64,000 nucleotides of DNA. Origin: Candidatus Iainarchaeum sp. GTDB taxonomy: Archaea > Micrarchaeota > Micrarchaeia > Anstonellales > Bilamarchaeaceae. Under the pieces are notes generated by a model, which had not been told where the DNA came from, did no database searches, and saw only the letters and a program-made list of their open reading frames with translations. The translations under genes and the position numbers were made by a program. The stretch spans positions 17,194-81,193 of the forward strand of contig JAQUBA010000001.1 of assembly GCA_028686985.1 (NCBI GenBank), written 5' to 3'. The stretch's first letter is position 1. Every line of letters starts with the position of its first letter. Shown here piece by piece: positions 5,206 to 28,416 of this stretch.

Positions 5206-6543
5206 TCAAACTGCGTTCCGTATGGCTTCTCTTGCTTTACTACAAACCTTATCCAGCAATTCCTTCGTCTTCGCTTCCGCCGTCAGCCTGATGATGCTCT
5301 CGGTCCCGGAAGCCCTGACCAGAACCCAGTATCCATCCCCGTCTATGCGTATCCCGTCCCCGGTTTCCCGTTTCCCTTCCAATTTGAGCGTCCCGGCTAT
5401 CTTCTCCATTGCCCTCACCCGGTCAGCCGTCTTGAACTTCTCCCTGGCCATGGGATTGGTCTTGAATCTGGAGGCAAGAACGCTCAATTTTCCCTTCCCA
5501 CAAAACAGCTCGACATACTTTGCCGCAGCCATAACCCCATCCGGCACGAGCACCCCTCCCCTAAAAACATATTCCCCTGCAGGTTCCCCGCCGAAGACCG
5601 CCCCGCTCTTCTCCATCTCCTCGCTCACATGCACGCTTCCCACAGGGGTCAGGACAAACCGCCCTCCATTCCCCTCAACAGTCTCCTTCACAATGAGCGA
5701 GCTCTCCACCGAGCTGATGATTTTCCCCTTCTTCCGCGCAAGCTCCTCCCCAACCATGAGCGCAAGCTGCACGTCCGCATTCAAGAGCTCGCCGCGCTCA
5801 TCCACAATAGCGCACCTGTCCGCGTCCCCGTCATGCGCAATCCCGAAATCAGCCCCGCAGCTCCGCACAGCCGAGCTCAGCCACGACAAATTCTCCTTAT
5901 TCGGCTCAGAAGGCCGGTTGAACCCGCGCGTTTCGCAGTTCAGGGACACAACCTTGCAACCAAGCTCACGCAATAAATACGGCGTAACCAGCGCCCCGGC
6001 CCCGTTGCAGTCCACCACCACCTTCGGCTTCTTTTTCGCAATCAGTTCAGTATCCACATTCTTTTTCACAAGTTCCATATATTCCGGGATGACATCCTCC
6101 CTCCTTCTTTCGCCAGGGGAGGCCCCATATCCCATCCCGCCCCCATGCCTTTCCAACACCCTCTTCTCCTCGGCGCGGCTTATCTCCCGCCCCTTTCGCA
6201 TGAACTTCAATCCATTATACTCCGCCGGATTATGTGAGGCGGTCACCATCAGGCCCCCACATCCGTATTTCATGCTCGCAAACGCCACAAGGGGCGTAGG
6301 GGCTATCCCAAGCCCAATCCCATCGTGTCCTGAAGAAAGAACCCCGCTCATGGCCGCAAAAGCCAGCGGAACCCCGCTCCCGCGCGTATCCCTCCCTATG
6401 CAAACATCCGTTTCAGCAAAGGCATTCGCCAGGCGCAGCGCAAGCTCAGGCGTAATATCCTTTCCATAGATGCCCCTGATACCGGAAGTGCCGAACATCC
6501 ATTCCATTTCCCCAGAAGCCCATTTAAACGTAGTTGTGTGCAT
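5206..6543 (-). CDS. glmM: Phosphoglucosamine/phosphohexose mutase
   Basis: FGTSGIRG N-terminus, the active-site TASHNPAEYNGLKF, and GDGDADR. A TATA-like TTTTAAAATA about 25 nt upstream supports ATG 6543. Internal Met codons at 6507 and 6498 are alternative starts. Confidence 0.85.
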   Translation of the reverse strand: MHTTTFKWASGEMEWMFGTSGIRGIYGKDITPELALRLANAFAETDVCIGRDTRGSGVPLAFAAMSGVLSSGHDGIGLGIAPTPLVAFASMKYGCGGLMVTASHNPAEYNGLKFMRKGREISRAEEKRVLERHGGGMGYGASPGERRREDVIPEYMELVKKNVDTELIAKKKPKVVVDCNGAGALVTPYLLRELGCKVVSLNCETRGFNRPSEPNKENLSWLSSAVRSCGADFGIAHDGDADRCAIVDERGELLNADVQLALMVGEELARKKGKIISSVESSLIVKETVEGNGGRFVLTPVGSVHVSEEMEKSGAVFGGEPAGEYVFRGGVLVPDGVMAAAKYVELFCGKGKLSVLASRFKTNPMAREKFKTADRVRAMEKIAGTLKLEGKRETGDGIRIDGDGYWVLVRASGTESIIRLTAEAKTKELLDKVCSKAREAIRNAV

Positions 6544-15227: not shown

Positions 15228-15298
15228 TGCGGCCGCCGGGATTTGAACCCGGGTCGTTGGCTTGGAAGGCCAAAATCCTACCGCTAGACTACGGCCGC
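15228..15298 (-). tRNA. tRNA-Gly (anticodon UCC)
   Basis: Hand-folded sequence GCGGCCGTAGTCTAGCGGTAGGATTTTGGCCTTCCAAGCCAACGACCCGGGTTCAAATCCCGGCGGCCGCA. It has a 7-bp acceptor stem, anticodon loop CTTCCAA and T-loop TTCAAAT. No CCA is encoded. Confidence 0.9.
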
Positions 15299-15449
15299 TC
15301 AAAGAGGAAGGGGGGAGCGTCCCCCCTCTTCGTTCTCCGCCCCTCTTCCATTGCAACTCCTTGCAACGGGGCGTCGAACGAATCTCTTTATGGTAATCAT
15401 AACCCCCTTCAACTTCGCCCCATCACTCTTCGCTCGTGCTCCTTACGCC
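15299..15449 (-). repeat. tRNA-upstream conserved module, copy A (expanded by a ~50-nt insertion)
   Basis: It shares with copies B and C the hairpin (GGGGGGA-GCG-TCCCCCC, 15310..15326), the pyrimidine leader next to tRNA +1, and the core CTCTTTATGGTAATCAT...CTCCTTACGCC (15384..15449). The insertion forms its own TTGCAA-CTCC-TTGCAA hairpin (15351..15366). Confidence 0.65.
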
Positions 15450-15476
15450 GGGCGGGGTATTCCTAATATGCCCACA

Positions 15477-15490
15477 GAAGAAAATAAAAA
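15477..15490 (-). terminator. Oligo-T tract (TTTTTATTTTCTTC on the minus strand) after the K+ channel gene
   Basis: T-rich run beginning 4 nt after the stop at 15494. Archaeal intrinsic terminators are oligo-T tracts. Confidence 0.5.
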
Positions 15491-15493
15491 CCC

Positions 15494-23315: not shown

Positions 23316-23409
23316 GAGTCCCCCTTCCAGTTTTGCCACTTAAGCAATAAAAACCGATGCGTTCCGCAAGGAATAATAATTTTCCAGCAGGTTGTTTCCC
23401 GGGGTCCCC

Positions 23410-24090
23410 ATGAAAACAAACGCAATTCTCCCGCTTCTGCTCCTGGCCGTTTTGGCCGGCTGCCTGCAGCAGCGCATAACCTACATATGCCCCGACGGCT
23501 CGGTGGCCAACAGCACCTACCTGTGCCCTCCGGTGCAGCATCCGGAACCGCCCACAGAGGCGCCCGCGCAGGAGGCGCCGACCGCCGTGAATGAAACGCC
23601 CGCCCCGGAGCCGCCCCCCGAGGCCCCGCCGAACATTTCATGCTACAAACAGGGCGGCGACGACAGGTTTTCCCAGTCCATCGCAGTGCTCCGCTCTGAT
23701 TCCACGGTCCTGCAACAGGGGGAGGACGTTTGCCTCAGCCCTTCCGACCTGAAGGAATTCTACTGTGACGGCGATGAAATGGCCTACACGACCTATGCGT
23801 GCGGCAACGGATGCGAGGGCGGACGGTGCAACCGCGAGCTCGTGCGCAGCGAATGCAATGACACGGACGGAGGGGGCGCGGACCACCTTTACCTGAGGGG
23901 GCAGATAATCTACCGCGACTATTATTCGGACGGGAGCACGGAGGAAAGGACTTTGGTGGAGGACTACTGCGACGGCACCACGCTGAACGAGTATTCGTGC
24001 CCAAGCCCTGGATCCACAGTCCACTTCGGCCATTCCGAGCTCGCGTGCCTAGGATGTGCCGATGGCGCGTGCCCTCACCCATATGATTAG
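23410..24090 (+). CDS. Cys-rich lipoprotein with two repeated CxxC-type modules
   Basis: MKTNAILPLLLLAVLAGC lipobox and a Pro/Glu/Ala linker. The repeat EFYCDGDEMAYTTYACGNGCEGGRC recurs as EDYCDGTTLNEYSC...ACLGCADGAC. ATG 23410 lies 26 nt after ATAATAATTTT. Confidence 0.6.
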   Translation: MKTNAILPLLLLAVLAGCLQQRITYICPDGSVANSTYLCPPVQHPEPPTEAPAQEAPTAVNETPAPEPPPEAPPNISCYKQGGDDRFSQSIAVLRSDSTVLQQGEDVCLSPSDLKEFYCDGDEMAYTTYACGNGCEGGRCNRELVRSECNDTDGGGADHLYLRGQIIYRDYYSDGSTEERTLVEDYCDGTTLNEYSCPSPGSTVHFGHSELACLGCADGACPHPYD

Positions 24091-24093
24091 GAA

Positions 24094-24165
24094 AGCCCCG
24101 GAGGGGGATTGAACCCCCGACCTCTCGCTTACGAGGCGAGCGCTCTACCGCTGAGCTACCGAGGC
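24094..24165 (-). tRNA. tRNA-Thr (anticodon CGU)
   Basis: Hand-folded GCCTCGGTAGCTCAGCGGTAGAGCGCTCGCCTCGTAAGCGAGAGGTCGGGGGTTCAATCCCCCTCCGGGGCT. The acceptor stem has one G-U pair and the anticodon loop is CTCGTAA. Confidence 0.9.
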
Positions 24166-24265
24166 GCCAAGAAGAAGAGGGGGCGCGCCCCCTCCCCTCT
24201 TTAGGGTAATCATCCCTCCCCCCGACTTCAACTAAGGGGACGCTTTGCACGTACTCCTTACGCAC
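24166..24265 (-). repeat. tRNA-upstream conserved module, copy B
   Basis: About 89% identical by hand alignment to copy C. Hairpin GAGGGGG-CGCG-CCCCCTC at 24177..24194 and core at 24197..24265. A TATAAAATA box on the minus strand lies at 24271..24279, immediately upstream. Confidence 0.7.
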
Positions 24266-24319
24266 TATCTTATTTTATACAGTTTCCGGAAACCCGAAAC
24301 GGGAAACCGAGAACTGATA

Positions 24320-24402
24320 CGCCGAGGGCAGGATTTGAACCTGCAATTCCTTGCGGAATCGGTTTTCGAGACCGACGCACTGCCGGGTTATGCGACCTCG
24401 GC
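24320..24402 (-). tRNA. tRNA-Ser (anticodon CGA), class II with a long variable arm
   Basis: GCCGAGGTCGCATAACCCGGCAGTGCGTCGGTCTCGAAAACCGATTCCGCAAGGAATTGCAGGTTCAAATCCTGCCCTCGGCG with anticodon loop CTCGAAA. It has no conserved upstream module, only AT-rich boxes. Confidence 0.9.
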
Positions 24403-24460
24403 TAAGAGATTGCAAGTAATTATACTCCACTCATTTTCTTAAACCTAATGAAAAGCAGAA

Positions 24461-24531
24461 TGCGGCCGCCGGGATTTGAACCCGGGTCGCTAGATTGGCA
24501 ACCTAGAATCCTACCGCTAGACTACGGCCGC
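24461..24531 (-). tRNA. tRNA-Gly (anticodon GCC)
   Basis: GCGGCCGTAGTCTAGCGGTAGGATTCTAGGTTGCCAATCTAGCGACCCGGGTTCAAATCCCGGCGGCCGCA with anticodon loop TTGCCAA. Confidence 0.9.
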
Positions 24532-24630
24532 GCCAAGAGGAAGATGGGGCGCACCCCCTCCTCTCTTTAGGGTAATCATACCTCCCCCCGACTTCACTGA
24601 GGGAATTCTTTGCACGCACTCCTTACGCAC
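24532..24630 (-). repeat. tRNA-upstream conserved module, copy C
   Basis: See copy B. Imperfect hairpin at 24543..24560 and core at 24563..24630. The nearest TATA-like boxes on the minus strand are 40-65 nt further upstream (24672..24698). Confidence 0.7.
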
Positions 24631-24750
24631 TTCCGAAAGAAGCGTGCATCTCCTCTAACCGAAGAGCATTCCTATTTTTCCATAAAGCATTTATAAACCA
24701 TTTCACTGCCACCCATTTTTCTTATTAAGCCTTCTGCACAAATCCATGCG

Positions 24751-26480: not shown

Positions 26481-26765
26481 ATGGAATACATCATCCTTTC
26501 ACCATGCGTGACCGCAAAGACCTGCGAGCTGCGCATGCGCGGCACCATAGAGCTGAAGAAGGCGGAGCAGGCCCTCCCCCCAGAGGCGGAAGTCCTTGCC
26601 CTAACAGAAGTCTTCCTTTCCGCCGCATACAAGGGAAAGCCCTTCTCCCTTTACCAGAGCGGAAAAATAGTCGTGAAGGAGGCGGAATCTGCCGAGGCAA
26701 AAGTCCTCCTCAAGGAAATGCTCTCTTTGCTTGAGAAAAAGGGGTGCCTGGTTGCTAAGGATTGA
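26481..26765 (+). CDS. Hypothetical small protein (94 aa), possibly a TBP-like fold
   Basis: KPFSLYQSGKIVVKEAESAEAKVLLKEM resembles the SGKIV.TGAKS strand-turn of TBP and RNase HIII N-domains. The similarity is weak and judged by eye only. Confidence 0.4.
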   Translation: MEYIILSPCVTAKTCELRMRGTIELKKAEQALPPEAEVLALTEVFLSAAYKGKPFSLYQSGKIVVKEAESAEAKVLLKEMLSLLEKKGCLVAKD

Positions 26766-27378
26766 TTTCCACGTCCATACGTCCCATTCTTTTGACGGAA
26801 GGATCAGCCCCGAACAGCTCGCCGCCCTTTCCAAGAAAACAGGCGTAATCCCGGCAATCACCGACCACGATGGCATAGGCGCGCATTCTGAATTCCGCAA
26901 GTTCGGCGTTCCGTTCATTCCAGGGGAAGAAATAGAAACCGCGCAGGGGGATTTCATAGGCCTTTTCGTGAACGAGCCGGTGAAGCGAGGGGTGGACTTC
27001 TACGAAGCGCTGGACTCCTTCCGCTCCCAGGGCGCCATCCCATACGCCCCCCACATGTTTGATTCCCTCCGCCCCGGCCTGGCAAAGGAGGAGTACGGGA
27101 GGGCCTCGGACATAATAGAGGTGTTCAACGCCCGCTCCCTGGAAAGGTTTGACAAAAAGGCAGAGGAGTTCGCCAAAAGGGAAGGAAAGCCCATGGCCGC
27201 AGGAAGCGATTCCCATTATCCTTACGAATTTGGGACCACTTACACGGAATTGAACCTCTCCGAAGACCAACTCCAGCCAAAGCCCCTGCTCAAAGCCCTG
27301 AAGAATGCAAAAATAGTCGGAAAGCGCACTTCTTTGCTCAAGAGAAAAATAGCAAAATATACGGGAATATACCTTTAG
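26731..27378 (+). CDS. PHP-domain metal-dependent phosphoesterase
   Basis: IDFHVHTSHSFDG...ITDHD...APHMFD...GSDSH metal-ligand pattern. ATG 26731 overlaps the preceding ORF by 35 nt; TTG 26752 is an alternative start. Confidence 0.75.
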   Translation: MRKRGAWLLRIDFHVHTSHSFDGRISPEQLAALSKKTGVIPAITDHDGIGAHSEFRKFGVPFIPGEEIETAQGDFIGLFVNEPVKRGVDFYEALDSFRSQGAIPYAPHMFDSLRPGLAKEEYGRASDIIEVFNARSLERFDKKAEEFAKREGKPMAAGSDSHYPYEFGTTYTELNLSEDQLQPKPLLKALKNAKIVGKRTSLLKRKIAKYTGIYL

Positions 27379-28416
27379 CTAAAACCACTTGTCCAGCGTC
27401 CGCTGCGTCCTCGTCTCCTTCACCTGTTTTATCATCCCTTCCAGCGCCTTGTCAATTCTCTCCAGCGAGAAGTCGTGCTCATCCACCAATAATTCTATAA
27501 CCCCCTCCCGCGTGGGCTTTCCCCAGGTTATATCTCCCACTTCTTTATGCGGAGCGTTCAGGAAGAAGTCATAAACCTCCTCCACATCCTCCGGGAACTC
27601 GTATTCCTTCTCTTTTTTCAGGTACGCCTTCACCTTCCCCAGCGTGTCCTGCTCCTTCACAATTTTCAGCCCGGTCTTCGGCCCAATCCCCCGCACCCCC
27701 TCGTTGAAGTCCGTTCCCACCATTATTCCAATCAAAATCAATTGTTCCCTCGTAACCCCAAGGTGCTTAAGCGTCTCTTCCAATTCCACCAGTTCTATTT
27801 CAATGTCTATGTACCTGTTCTGCTTCGGCACCTTCCTTTTTCCCGTAATGGACAAGTTCCTCAGGAAAATCGGAGAGCCGAAAAGAAGCGAATCATAATC
27901 CTGCGATGCCGAAGCATAGCAGAGCCCCTCCCTTACCATGTACGCACCCTGTGCCTCCCCTTCTGAGGGCGCCTGCACCCACGGAATCCCCATAAGCGAA
28001 AGCAGCCTCTTGCTCTCATCCACCATCTCTTTCGTGAGCCGCGAGCTTCCCTGCGCGTACCTCTTCGCCTCCTCCATCTTCTCCTCAGCCAGCGCCTTCT
28101 TCCACTTGTGCTCCGCCTCCCTCCGCACCTCAATCCTCCCTTCTATGGTTTTCCTCTTGAACTCAGGCGGAGGCCCGTCAAACACATACACCGGCTTTAT
28201 CCCCGCATTCACAAGCCTGATGCTCCGGTAAAACAATCCGGAAAGATGCCCGGTAACCCGTCCCTTCATATCCATGAGCGGCATCCCGTCCTCCTGCCGT
28301 ATGGACGCAAGGAACTGGTAGAGGATATTCATCCCATCTATCGCTACGCACTTCCCTGCAAGCTCCTCCAGCTCGACCTTGTGCTTCACCGCAAGGTCGC
28401 CCAAATCAACTCCCAT
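27379..28416 (-). CDS. fen: Flap endonuclease 1
   Basis: MGVDLGDL...AIDGMNILYQFL, SEGEAQGAY, the H3TH region and a C-terminal PIP-like TLDKWF. Confidence 0.9.
   Translation of the reverse strand: MGVDLGDLAVKHKVELEELAGKCVAIDGMNILYQFLASIRQEDGMPLMDMKGRVTGHLSGLFYRSIRLVNAGIKPVYVFDGPPPEFKRKTIEGRIEVRREAEHKWKKALAEEKMEEAKRYAQGSSRLTKEMVDESKRLLSLMGIPWVQAPSEGEAQGAYMVREGLCYASASQDYDSLLFGSPIFLRNLSITGKRKVPKQNRYIDIEIELVELEETLKHLGVTREQLILIGIMVGTDFNEGVRGIGPKTGLKIVKEQDTLGKVKAYLKKEKEYEFPEDVEEVYDFFLNAPHKEVGDITWGKPTREGVIELLVDEHDFSLERIDKALEGMIKQVKETRTQRTLDKWF

Follow-up and report, generated by a model that had tools for sequence, protein, structure and literature searches.

Why do two unrelated tRNA genes carry nearly the same block of about 100 nucleotides directly at their 5′ ends? 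The question was raised by a first-pass annotation of a 64-kb stretch of a Candidatus Iainarchaeum sp. assembly (contig JAQUBA010000001.1; this whole stretch is referred to as the window), which pointed out the blocks in front of tRNA-Thr(CGT) and tRNA-Gly(GCC). The blocks are copies of a ~97-nt module that recurs in related Micrarchaeota. It inserts into new sites with a fixed 3′ junction and a variable, co-mobilised 5′ flank. In our view, the module is probably one of the copy types of a multi-copy mobile element that does not code for protein, is confined to a lineage, and is mobilised in a polar, one-ended way from its hairpin end, taking the upstream flank along.

The module and its terminal hairpin

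The two annotated blocks are ~90% identical, with 10 substitutions and one indel over ~99 aligned nucleotides. The similarity starts at GTGCGTAAGG on the 5′ side and stops 1 nt short of each tRNA, and the outer flanks are unrelated. The annotation had counted two copies, and a third one precedes tRNA-Gly(TCC). The conserved cores ATGATTACCNTAAAGAG and GCGTAAGGAGYRCGWGCRAAG have exactly three matches each in the window, where shuffling predicts 0.28 and 0.02 matches, respectively, and three matches were reached in none of 100 shuffles. The covariance model described below found no fourth copy in the window. All four tRNA genes of the window are on the minus strand, and three of them are preceded by the module; tRNA-Ser(CGA) was correctly described as lacking it. 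The module was also rightly called non-coding, as its copies differ by indels of 1-2 nt and insertions of 48-56 nt, which are not multiples of three. Only the four tRNAs exceed the Rfam threshold in the window, and permissive scans of the module region and of one type C copy gave chance-level matches. The absence of an Rfam family match, which holds alike for tRNA leaders, small RNAs, riboswitches, C/D or H/ACA small RNAs, omega-RNA/HEARO, and RNase P, agrees with the annotation, which had recognised no described class, and literature searches found no description of the module.

The comparison includes sequence pieces from metagenome-assembled genomes (MAGs) and metagenomes of relatives, labelled L###; since pieces of genomes were scanned, the copy numbers are lower bounds. 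A gapped pattern identified 25 true loci in seven Micrarchaeota MAGs, together with one chance match, and scanning of metagenomes added 12 true and three chance matches. Outside the Micrarchaeota clade, the pattern yielded chance matches only. The annotation had suggested a covariance-model search of relatives, and this search located copies at many other loci and in related Micrarchaeota MAGs. The model, R1, was built from 25 copies, recovered all of them and added copies that the pattern had missed. It also revealed a second subfamily, type C, with GGUCAGAAUGAC in place of GGUAUGAUUACC and the tail GCGUUUUUGG. Pattern scan and covariance model together give more than 40 copies in at least eight Micrarchaeota MAGs; at least 14 copies lie in the ~60 kb read of the 1.03-Mb genome SO_2017_LW3_140. 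The affected loci comprise at least 10 different tRNA species across the clade and a large share of the tRNA loci inspected. No copy was found in the IMG/VR, phage and plasmid collections.

In the module, the conserved 5′ domain (GCGUAAGGAG..GUGAAGU) is followed by a purine run, then by the small hairpin P3, and finally by the terminal hairpin P4. The motifs GCGUAAGGAG and GUGAAGU are invariant in all subfamilies. P4 is 13-16 bp long and defines the sharp 3′ boundary of the module, which is 2-3 nt from its base. The pyrimidine-rich CTTCYTCTTGG, annotated as a separate leader, is the 3′ strand of this hairpin, whose base is 1-3 nt from tRNA +1. Across 35 distinct copies, 96.3% of the P4 cells are paired, and seven of the 14 pairs vary on both sides, in 48 cells. 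None of 500 shuffles was as good, and slid controls reached only 69-78% pairing. The base of P4 covaries between the subfamilies, from AAAGAG/CUCUUU in types A and B to AAAAAUG/CGUUUUU in type C and AACUG/CGGUU in L047, and P4 strands form better pairs in cognate than in non-cognate combinations (permutation p < 1e-4). In all 25 variants compared, the P4 of the module strand is the more stable one relative to that of the complementary strand (-22.0 versus -18.2 kcal/mol). This asymmetry indicates selection on the RNA, or at least on that strand; 30 of 360 P4 pairs are G.U pairs. Extra sequence enters the module as self-contained stem-loops, either at one junction or within the loop of P4.

The conserved hairpin of the annotation is thus paired and covarying, and the compensatory changes to be looked for in its stems are present in P4, which is the only well-supported structure of the module. 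The stem P1 (GCGUA/UACGU) has no covariation support. The other small stem, GGU-AUGAUU-ACC, is supported only indirectly: type C copies have GGUC-AGAAU-GAC(C) in place of P3, L047 has GGGUC-AGGAA-GACCC there, and P3 is plausible as a small hairpin only because each of the three sequence states can form one.

Other readings of the module sequence were rejected. Pairing of the purine run with the pyrimidine strand of P4, as an alternative helix, a switch or a purine-motif triplex, is attractive by eye across types A, B, and C, but cognate combinations are no better than others (p = 0.83). Interpretation of AUGAUUA and GUGAUGA as parts of a C/D-box, H/ACA or K-turn RNA fails, as there is no D box and the motifs are not conserved. 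For a small open reading frame (ORF) starting at the type C AUG, the frame agrees with that of the FEN1 copy in L047 and disagrees with it in L052. An archaeal bulge-helix-bulge intron or split-tRNA leader is contradicted by the boundaries in L013, which are not complementary by inspection, and by the antisense orientation of the module at the RFC gene.

Junctions, insertions and flanking duplications

The 3′ end of the module (…CUUCCUCUUGG; …GCGUUUUUGG in type C) forms a sharp and constant junction, and the sequence that follows it varies. In six locus groups, the end is 0-1 nt from the +1 position of a co-oriented tRNA (Gly-GCC, Gly-TCC, Thr-CGT, Thr-TGT, Asn-GTT, and Ser-GCT). In six others, it meets the 3′ end of a convergent, antisense tRNA with a gap of -3 to +3 nt (Val-GAC, Leu-CAG, Leu-TAA, Ile-GAT, and two more). 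Three locus groups have the module next to a tRNA fragment, an exact repeat of one end of a complete tRNA close by: 18 nt of Thr-GGT from position 57/58 in L013, 20 nt corresponding to antisense Val positions 1-20 in L018, and 24 and 37 nt of Thr-CGT in L025 and L022, respectively. About 12 locus groups have no adjacent tRNA, and some of these are located after stop codons or in the genes for RFC and FEN1. Nine of ~30 copies start 0-45 nt past the stop codon of a co-directional gene. Base-exact abutment of a tRNA in 12 of ~27 locus groups is far beyond chance, because tRNA genes make up only ~0.3% of such a genome. The module has a strong preference for tRNA borders, in both orientations. Conversely, the range of sequences that its 3′ end touches overturns the reading of the module as a dedicated tRNA 5′ leader and the annotated tie to tRNA 5′ flanks. 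The window contains no tRNA fragments of at least 14 nt elsewhere, which could have marked the far end of a larger element.

Insertion is proven by the comparison of empty and filled sites at the start of the RFC large-subunit gene. The site is empty in L042 and L044, which have an uninterrupted intergenic region of 52 nt and RFC proteins with 91-93% amino-acid identity. The filled site in L029 contains a type C copy antisense to the gene and is 171 nt longer. The 171-nt insert is composed of a second copy of the 5′ untranslated region and the first 10 codons (42-46 nt), 32 foreign nucleotides, and the 97-nt module. The foreign nucleotides are AT-rich and include a TATA-like box that now faces the RFC gene; the gene-side duplicate has one synonymous change and a different promoter. 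A HicA/HicB toxin-antitoxin pair is encoded near RFC in L044 (1616-2072) and is absent in the close relative L042.

Direct repeats of the target gene end occur at several insertions. They comprise the four tRNA fragments described above, 46 nt at RFC, and 45 and 75 nt at FEN1; in addition, a 17-nt repeat flanks the copy in a tRNA-Val promoter. The module is small, non-coding and multi-copy, with presence/absence polymorphism, as are MITEs (miniature inverted-repeat transposable elements), but its duplications vary from 17 to 75 nt instead of being short and fixed, and most copies have none. In L025, the interval from the complete tRNA-Thr to the 24-nt repeat encloses a whole GNAT acetyltransferase gene and the module. 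The DNA located 5′ of the module within the insertions is 14-535 nt long and mutually unrelated, and the inserts total 106-630 nt. For the foreign segment, from the left repeat to the module, similarity to the native flank is not significant (p = 0.04 for RFC and 0.6-0.98 for the others).

The FEN1 gene provides insight into the origin of the duplicated ends. In the window, FEN1 (27379-28416, minus strand) and a PHP-domain gene (26731-27378, plus strand) converge with zero spacer at 27378/27379. FEN1 abuts the PHP gene without a spacer in relatives as well, and the module disrupts this junction in L047. Copies consisting of the 3′ domain only are located inside the FEN1 gene end in L047 and L052, flanked by two versions of the last 15-25 codons (duplicates of 45 and 75 nt, respectively). 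The two versions in L047 encode the same peptide (VKESRSQRTLDKWF, followed by the stop), and the 12 nt that differ between them are all synonymous. In L052, 11 nt differ over the same 45-nt stretch, and there are two amino-acid differences across the 75-nt duplicate. The gene-continuous version has an alien codon style, with a GC content of third codon positions (GC3) of 0.47 in L047 and 0.32 in L052, in comparison with 0.71 and 0.65 in the gene bodies. The displaced version adjacent to the module 3′ end has the native style (GC3 of 0.93 and 0.80), and its last 27 nt in L047 are identical to the end of the window FEN1. Judged by codon style, the module must have brought the gene-side copy along from an allele that had diverged.

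A duplication by staggered cut cannot explain the FEN1 case, because the gene-side copy is alien and the displaced copy native in codon style. A long in-situ target duplication or a simple staggered cut is unlikely in general, since the foreign segments are unlike the native flank. The import of a flank fits the RFC and tRNA cases too: the tRNA repeats would be perfect because tRNAs are nearly invariant between strains, and the sequence from the repeat to the module is unrelated to the native flank.

Both FEN1 end copies are coding-competent in the two lineages (L047 5023-5156, L052 1960-2185; PIP box QRTLDKWF). A Ser/Thr difference between the L047 and L052 genomes is present in both copies of each, and the displaced copies differ between the genomes almost only synonymously, with the stop codon kept, which simple decay of an orphan does not explain. 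Since the duplicated gene ends are coding-competent on both sides, the element may be tolerated via an undescribed mechanism at the level of RNA or of excision.

Module copies also exchange sequence with each other. The orthologous Thr(CGT) copies of L012 and L016 have an identity of 97% over the 5′ half but of 53% over the 3′ half, and the 3′ half of the L012 copy is 98% identical to another copy from its own genome. The 3′ domains are therefore replaced between copies within a genome. In L022, one copy is nested in another. Three copies, including those in L047 and L052, consist of the 3′ domain only, and no copy consists of the 5′ domain only.

A proposed mobilisation from the hairpin end and its rivals

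We propose that a nick, or the end of replication or of a transcript, at the base of P4 would start copying, which would run through the module into the variable upstream flank. The product, composed of the module and the donor flank, would re-enter a genome, often a related strain's, where recombination via the conserved flank would place it at the homologous locus and leave a duplicated gene end beside the module 3′ end. Insertions that are truly new would go preferentially to the precise borders of tRNA genes, whatever the orientation. Candidate enzymes are a rolling-circle-type nuclease of the HUH class, as in IS91/ISCR or IS200/IS605, and a reverse transcriptase, and an RNA-templated version of the mechanism would fit equally well.

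Several observations weigh against one-ended mobilisation. No transposase, integrase, reverse transcriptase or TnpB is encoded beside any of ~30 copies, and the mobilising activity is therefore hypothetical; the only enzyme lead is that IS200/IS605 elements are reported in >65% of Micrarchaeota genomes (PMC13343696). Terminal inverted repeats are absent, as by inspection the 5′ end GCGTAAGGAG is not matched by the reverse complement of the 3′ end (CCAAGAGGAAG or CCAAAAACGC). No conserved target motif that could direct insertion to tRNA borders with base precision was found at the junctions. Most copies are common to several genomes at orthologous sites, and demonstrably recent insertions are few. 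A function for the host, as opposed to pure selfishness, could explain why the 5′ domain is strongly conserved and why the hairpin persists 1-3 nt before tRNA-Gly(GCC) +1 in the remodelled L047 locus. Finally, every sequence comes from a MAG or metagenome assembly, in which repeats may be misassembled; yet the L013/L031 and L004/L030 structures were each found in two assemblies.

We regard it as rather unlikely that the module is instead an RNA-defined mobile unit, archaeal SINE-like or templated by an RNA end. The transcript ending at P4 would be copied from its 3′ end, and the copy would be joined to the ends or loops of tRNA genes or converted into resident copies; the 3′ end would arise either from the U-tract of type C or from RNase P cleavage at a neighbouring tRNA, sense or antisense. 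Such a unit would account for a 3′ end that is fixed, copies truncated on the 5′ side, 3′ domains replaced in a polar manner, and tRNA junctions that are exact to the base. It is unlikely that the module is a functional RNA dedicated to tRNA loci, whether a structured 5′ leader or a small RNA released by RNase P, with the spread being secondary. This reading is favoured by the three window copies and the six locus groups exactly 5′ of sense tRNAs and downstream of promoter boxes, by the G.U pairs and compensatory changes of the hairpin on the tRNA-sense strand, by the invariant GCGUAAGGAG and GUGAAGU motifs, and by the survival of the hairpin right before Gly(GCC) +1 through remodelling. However, equally many loci are convergent with the tRNA, and ~12 locus groups lack a complete tRNA next to them, with some copies following stop codons or lying within RFC and FEN1. 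Furthermore, the tRNA-Ser of the same cluster and all tRNAs of sister lineages do without the module.

The abundance of IS200/IS605 elements in Micrarchaeota raises the alternative that the module is a right-end relic or PATE-like derivative of such an element, a stand-alone omega-RNA-like scaffold whose adjoining flank, be it a tRNA start, a tRNA fragment or a gene end, would guide a TnpB encoded elsewhere. The layout resembles a scaffold with a guide, with a sub-terminal hairpin near the sharp end, a scaffold of ~100 nt, and 16-24 nt identical to the target. We nevertheless consider this origin improbable, as neither TnpA nor TnpB is encoded beside any copy, the junctions read have no conserved 4-5-nt motif before the matching targets, and there is neither an Rfam match, including to omega-RNA/HEARO, nor a left-end hairpin. 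Moreover, IS200/IS605 elements make no target duplications, and the module insertions have them. The duplications themselves could suggest that the copies are decayed att-flanking arms of integrase-driven elements that carried a replacement gene end: direct repeats of tRNA 3′ or 5′ ends flank the inserts, one insert has the GNAT gene as cargo, and the FEN1 and RFC duplicates differ almost only synonymously, as in the icd paradigm. The odds of this reading appear similarly poor, given that the inserts of 106-630 nt have no integrase in or near them, the targets are unrelated and lack a common core sequence, the module is absent from the viral, phage and plasmid collections, and a 1-Mb genome harbours more than 14 copies, most of them without a duplication. 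A regulatory cassette acting as DNA, such as a promoter, terminator or insulator of tRNA genes, is very improbable. The A5-stem-U5 architecture of type C could terminate transcription in both directions, and nine of ~30 copies are located 0-45 nt after a co-directional stop codon. Nonetheless, types A and B have no U tract, the distance from TAAAGAG to the tRNA varies by ~50 nt, the G.U pairing of the hairpin is strand-specific, and a cassette leaves the insertions and duplications unexplained.

Window loci, related systems and significance

All three window copies are positioned between putative promoter boxes and tRNA +1 and would accordingly be transcribed as leaders (Table 1). From this arrangement, three of the four window tRNAs are probably made with structured 5′ leaders of 100-200 nt. 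RNase P would have to remove these leaders, with the hairpin 1-3 nt from its cleavage site. The boxes upstream of the Gly(GCC) copy are the likely promoter of a long leader-tRNA transcript. The module-free relatives L045 and L046, whose geranylgeranyl reductase (GGR) is 53-54% identical, have the same tRNAs, and their tRNA-Gly TATA box is ~30 nt before +1; the gap between tRNA-Ser and tRNA-Thr is 4-58 nt in the module-free relatives versus 154 nt in the window. The TATA-like boxes of the module clade are separated from tRNA +1 by the module. Synteny based on GGR gave no clean empty site for the window locus, but it did yield these module-free relatives. ORFs of LAGLIDADG homing endonucleases are located beside the tRNA clusters in L045 (4800-5504), L046 (4820-5047), and L047 (158-859).

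Three roles had been considered in the annotation. A structured, co-transcribed leader is probably a consequence for the three sense copies of the window, not the defining role of the module. The role that comes closest is that of a trace left by an element duplicating into tRNA 5′ flanks, as the element does insert, although it is not restricted to 5′ flanks. With regard to a regulatory DNA role, the module was correctly judged not to be a fixed-distance promoter: the 48-56-nt insertions shift TAAAGAG away from the tRNA, and the TATA-like boxes are at variable distances. The 5′ boundary of the module was also rejected as a fixed transcription start, because the peak of AT content at -25 to -16 is weak and the distance to the boxes varies.

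Table 1 Positions of the module copies, their hairpins, tRNA genes, and promoter boxes in the window.
Feature	Position	Strand	Details and basis
Module copy, type A, 99 nt	24167..24265	minus	3′ end 1 nt from tRNA-Thr(CGT) +1; alignment; covariance-model hit, 104.5 bits
Module copy, type A, 98 nt	24533..24630	minus	3′ end 1 nt from tRNA-Gly(GCC) +1; alignment; covariance-model hit, 104.8 bits
Module copy, type B', 151 nt	15300..15450	minus	3′ end 1 nt from tRNA-Gly(TCC) +1; covariance-model hit, 61.6 bits
Extra stem-loop, 56 nt (CGUUC..GCCCC..UUGCAA-GGAG-UUGCAA..GGGGC..GAACG)	15328..15383	minus	read from sequence
Terminal hairpin P4, Thr copy (AAGAGGGGAGGGGG-CGCG-CCCCCUCUUCUUCUU)	24169..24201	minus	minimum-free-energy folds, covariation
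Terminal hairpin P4, Gly(GCC) copy	24535..24567	minus	minimum-free-energy folds, covariation
P4 core, Gly(TCC) copy (AGGGGGGA-CGC-UCCCCCCUUCCUCUUUG)	15300..15327	minus	same hairpin in L006 and L017
Small hairpin P3, Thr copy (GGG-AUGAUUA-CCC)	24204..24216	minus	read from sequence; equivalent in Gly(GCC) copy at 24571-24582
tRNA-Thr(CGT), adjoining module	24094..24165	minus	ARAGORN and Rfam
tRNA-Gly(GCC), adjoining module	24461..24531	minus	ARAGORN and Rfam
tRNA-Gly(TCC), adjoining module	15228..15298	minus	ARAGORN and Rfam
tRNA-Ser(CGA), without module	24320..24402	minus	ARAGORN
TATA-like boxes (GGTTTATAAATGCTTTATGGAAAAATAGG)	24671..24699	minus	40-70 nt upstream of Gly(GCC) module; kept in L002, L012, and L047
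TATA-like boxes (TTTTTATTTT, CATATTAGGA)	15461..15493	minus	upstream of Gly(TCC) module; conserved in orthologues

The Gly(GCC) copy has orthologues in L002 and L012 and a remodelled orthologue in L047. The 56-nt self-folding insertion of the Gly(TCC) copy is placed between TAAAGAG and the terminal hairpin. The Gly(TCC) orthologues in L006, L017, and L028 are without it, and the same type of insertion is present in the non-orthologous copies L005, L024, L023, and L036. The neighbouring genes in the window encode archaeal housekeeping proteins, namely GINS, aIF2-alpha, PAC2, FEN1, GGR, and the PHP-domain protein. The closest homologue of the window GGR is 89% identical and comes from DeMMO3_23.

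A plus-strand ORF of 232 residues (23392-24090) is rich in cysteine and lacks a Pfam match, and 3 nt separate its end from that of the convergent tRNA-Thr (3′ end); L012 has a homologous flank. A small Cys-rich ORF (L012 2423-2806) is located between tRNA-Gly(GCC) and tRNA-Ser in SO_2017, and the spacing of these two tRNAs is only ~55-60 nt in the window and L002. The heptamers GGTTTCC and GGAAACC occur 20 and 16 times in the window, where ~4 are expected, and their densest cluster (AGTTTCCGGAAACCCGAAACGGGAAACCGAG) is at 24282-24310, between tRNA-Ser and the Thr module. Similar runs in relatives flank tRNAs and fill a long tRNA-Thr intron (L025 6340-6500; L018 3990-4040, 4130-4150, and 4430-4460; L002 ~600-640). 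The tRNA-Thr(CGT) of MAG258 (L025 ~6311-6530) has an intron of ~160 nt at position 37/38, and that of POMEDNA-A14 (L016 downstream of 3378) has one at the same position; the window orthologue is intronless. ARAGORN fails to call these intron-containing genes.

The module resembles IS91/ISCR and Helitron-like elements in its fixed hairpin end a few nucleotides from the boundary and in its variable other end carrying upstream DNA, such as a flank or the GNAT gene. Homologous rescue is the proposed origin of complex integrons with ISCR1 and part of the logic put forward for the one-ended transposition of IS91/ISCR; the module would share the rescue by homologous recombination, with partial duplications left behind. 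It differs in its length of ~97 nt, the lack of a transposase, the precise association with tRNA borders, and the RNA-type (G.U) conservation of the hairpin. The junctions of the module have no clear tetranucleotide beside the 3′ end that would correspond to a target of the GTTC/CTTG type. MITEs, REP/BIME, and Correia repeats are likewise short, non-coding, multi-copy, hairpin-forming, and lineage-specific, and are often located after stop codons or co-transcribed. In contrast to these repeats, the module has no terminal inverted repeats or fixed target-site duplication, is conserved at one end, is accompanied by gene-end duplications of 17-75 nt, and abuts tRNA termini base-precisely in both orientations.

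Yeast Ty3 sigma, Dictyostelium TRE, and L1 small-RNA chimeras share with the module repeats at tRNA flanks in either orientation, a conserved 3′ end, 5′ truncation, and variable duplications. However, the module resides in an archaeal host with a single RNA polymerase, has no reverse transcriptase beside its copies and no poly(A), and joins the tRNA end itself, unlike Ty3 sigma and TRE, which are 16-50 bp away. Elements targeting tRNA genes in archaea, as well as e14 and phage 21, which integrate at icd and carry a replacement gene end, also produce direct repeats of a gene end, with a synonymous element-side copy and an intact gene. The module differs from them in its hundred-nucleotide scale, the lack of an integrase, the many unrelated targets without a common core, and the absence of a repeat at most copies.

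The genomes of DPANN archaea are tiny, and few mobile elements have been described from them, to which the module would add a new one. It reshapes gene ends and would turn tRNA genes that, by the TATA spacing in relatives, seem to have short leaders into genes with long structured leaders. For annotation, orphan tRNA fragments and duplicated gene ends beside the module should not be called genes. The junctions at tRNA borders and the one-ended carry-over of flanks between strains point to a rolling-circle-type or RNA-templated mechanism undocumented in Archaea, or to a new way of targeting tRNA genes.

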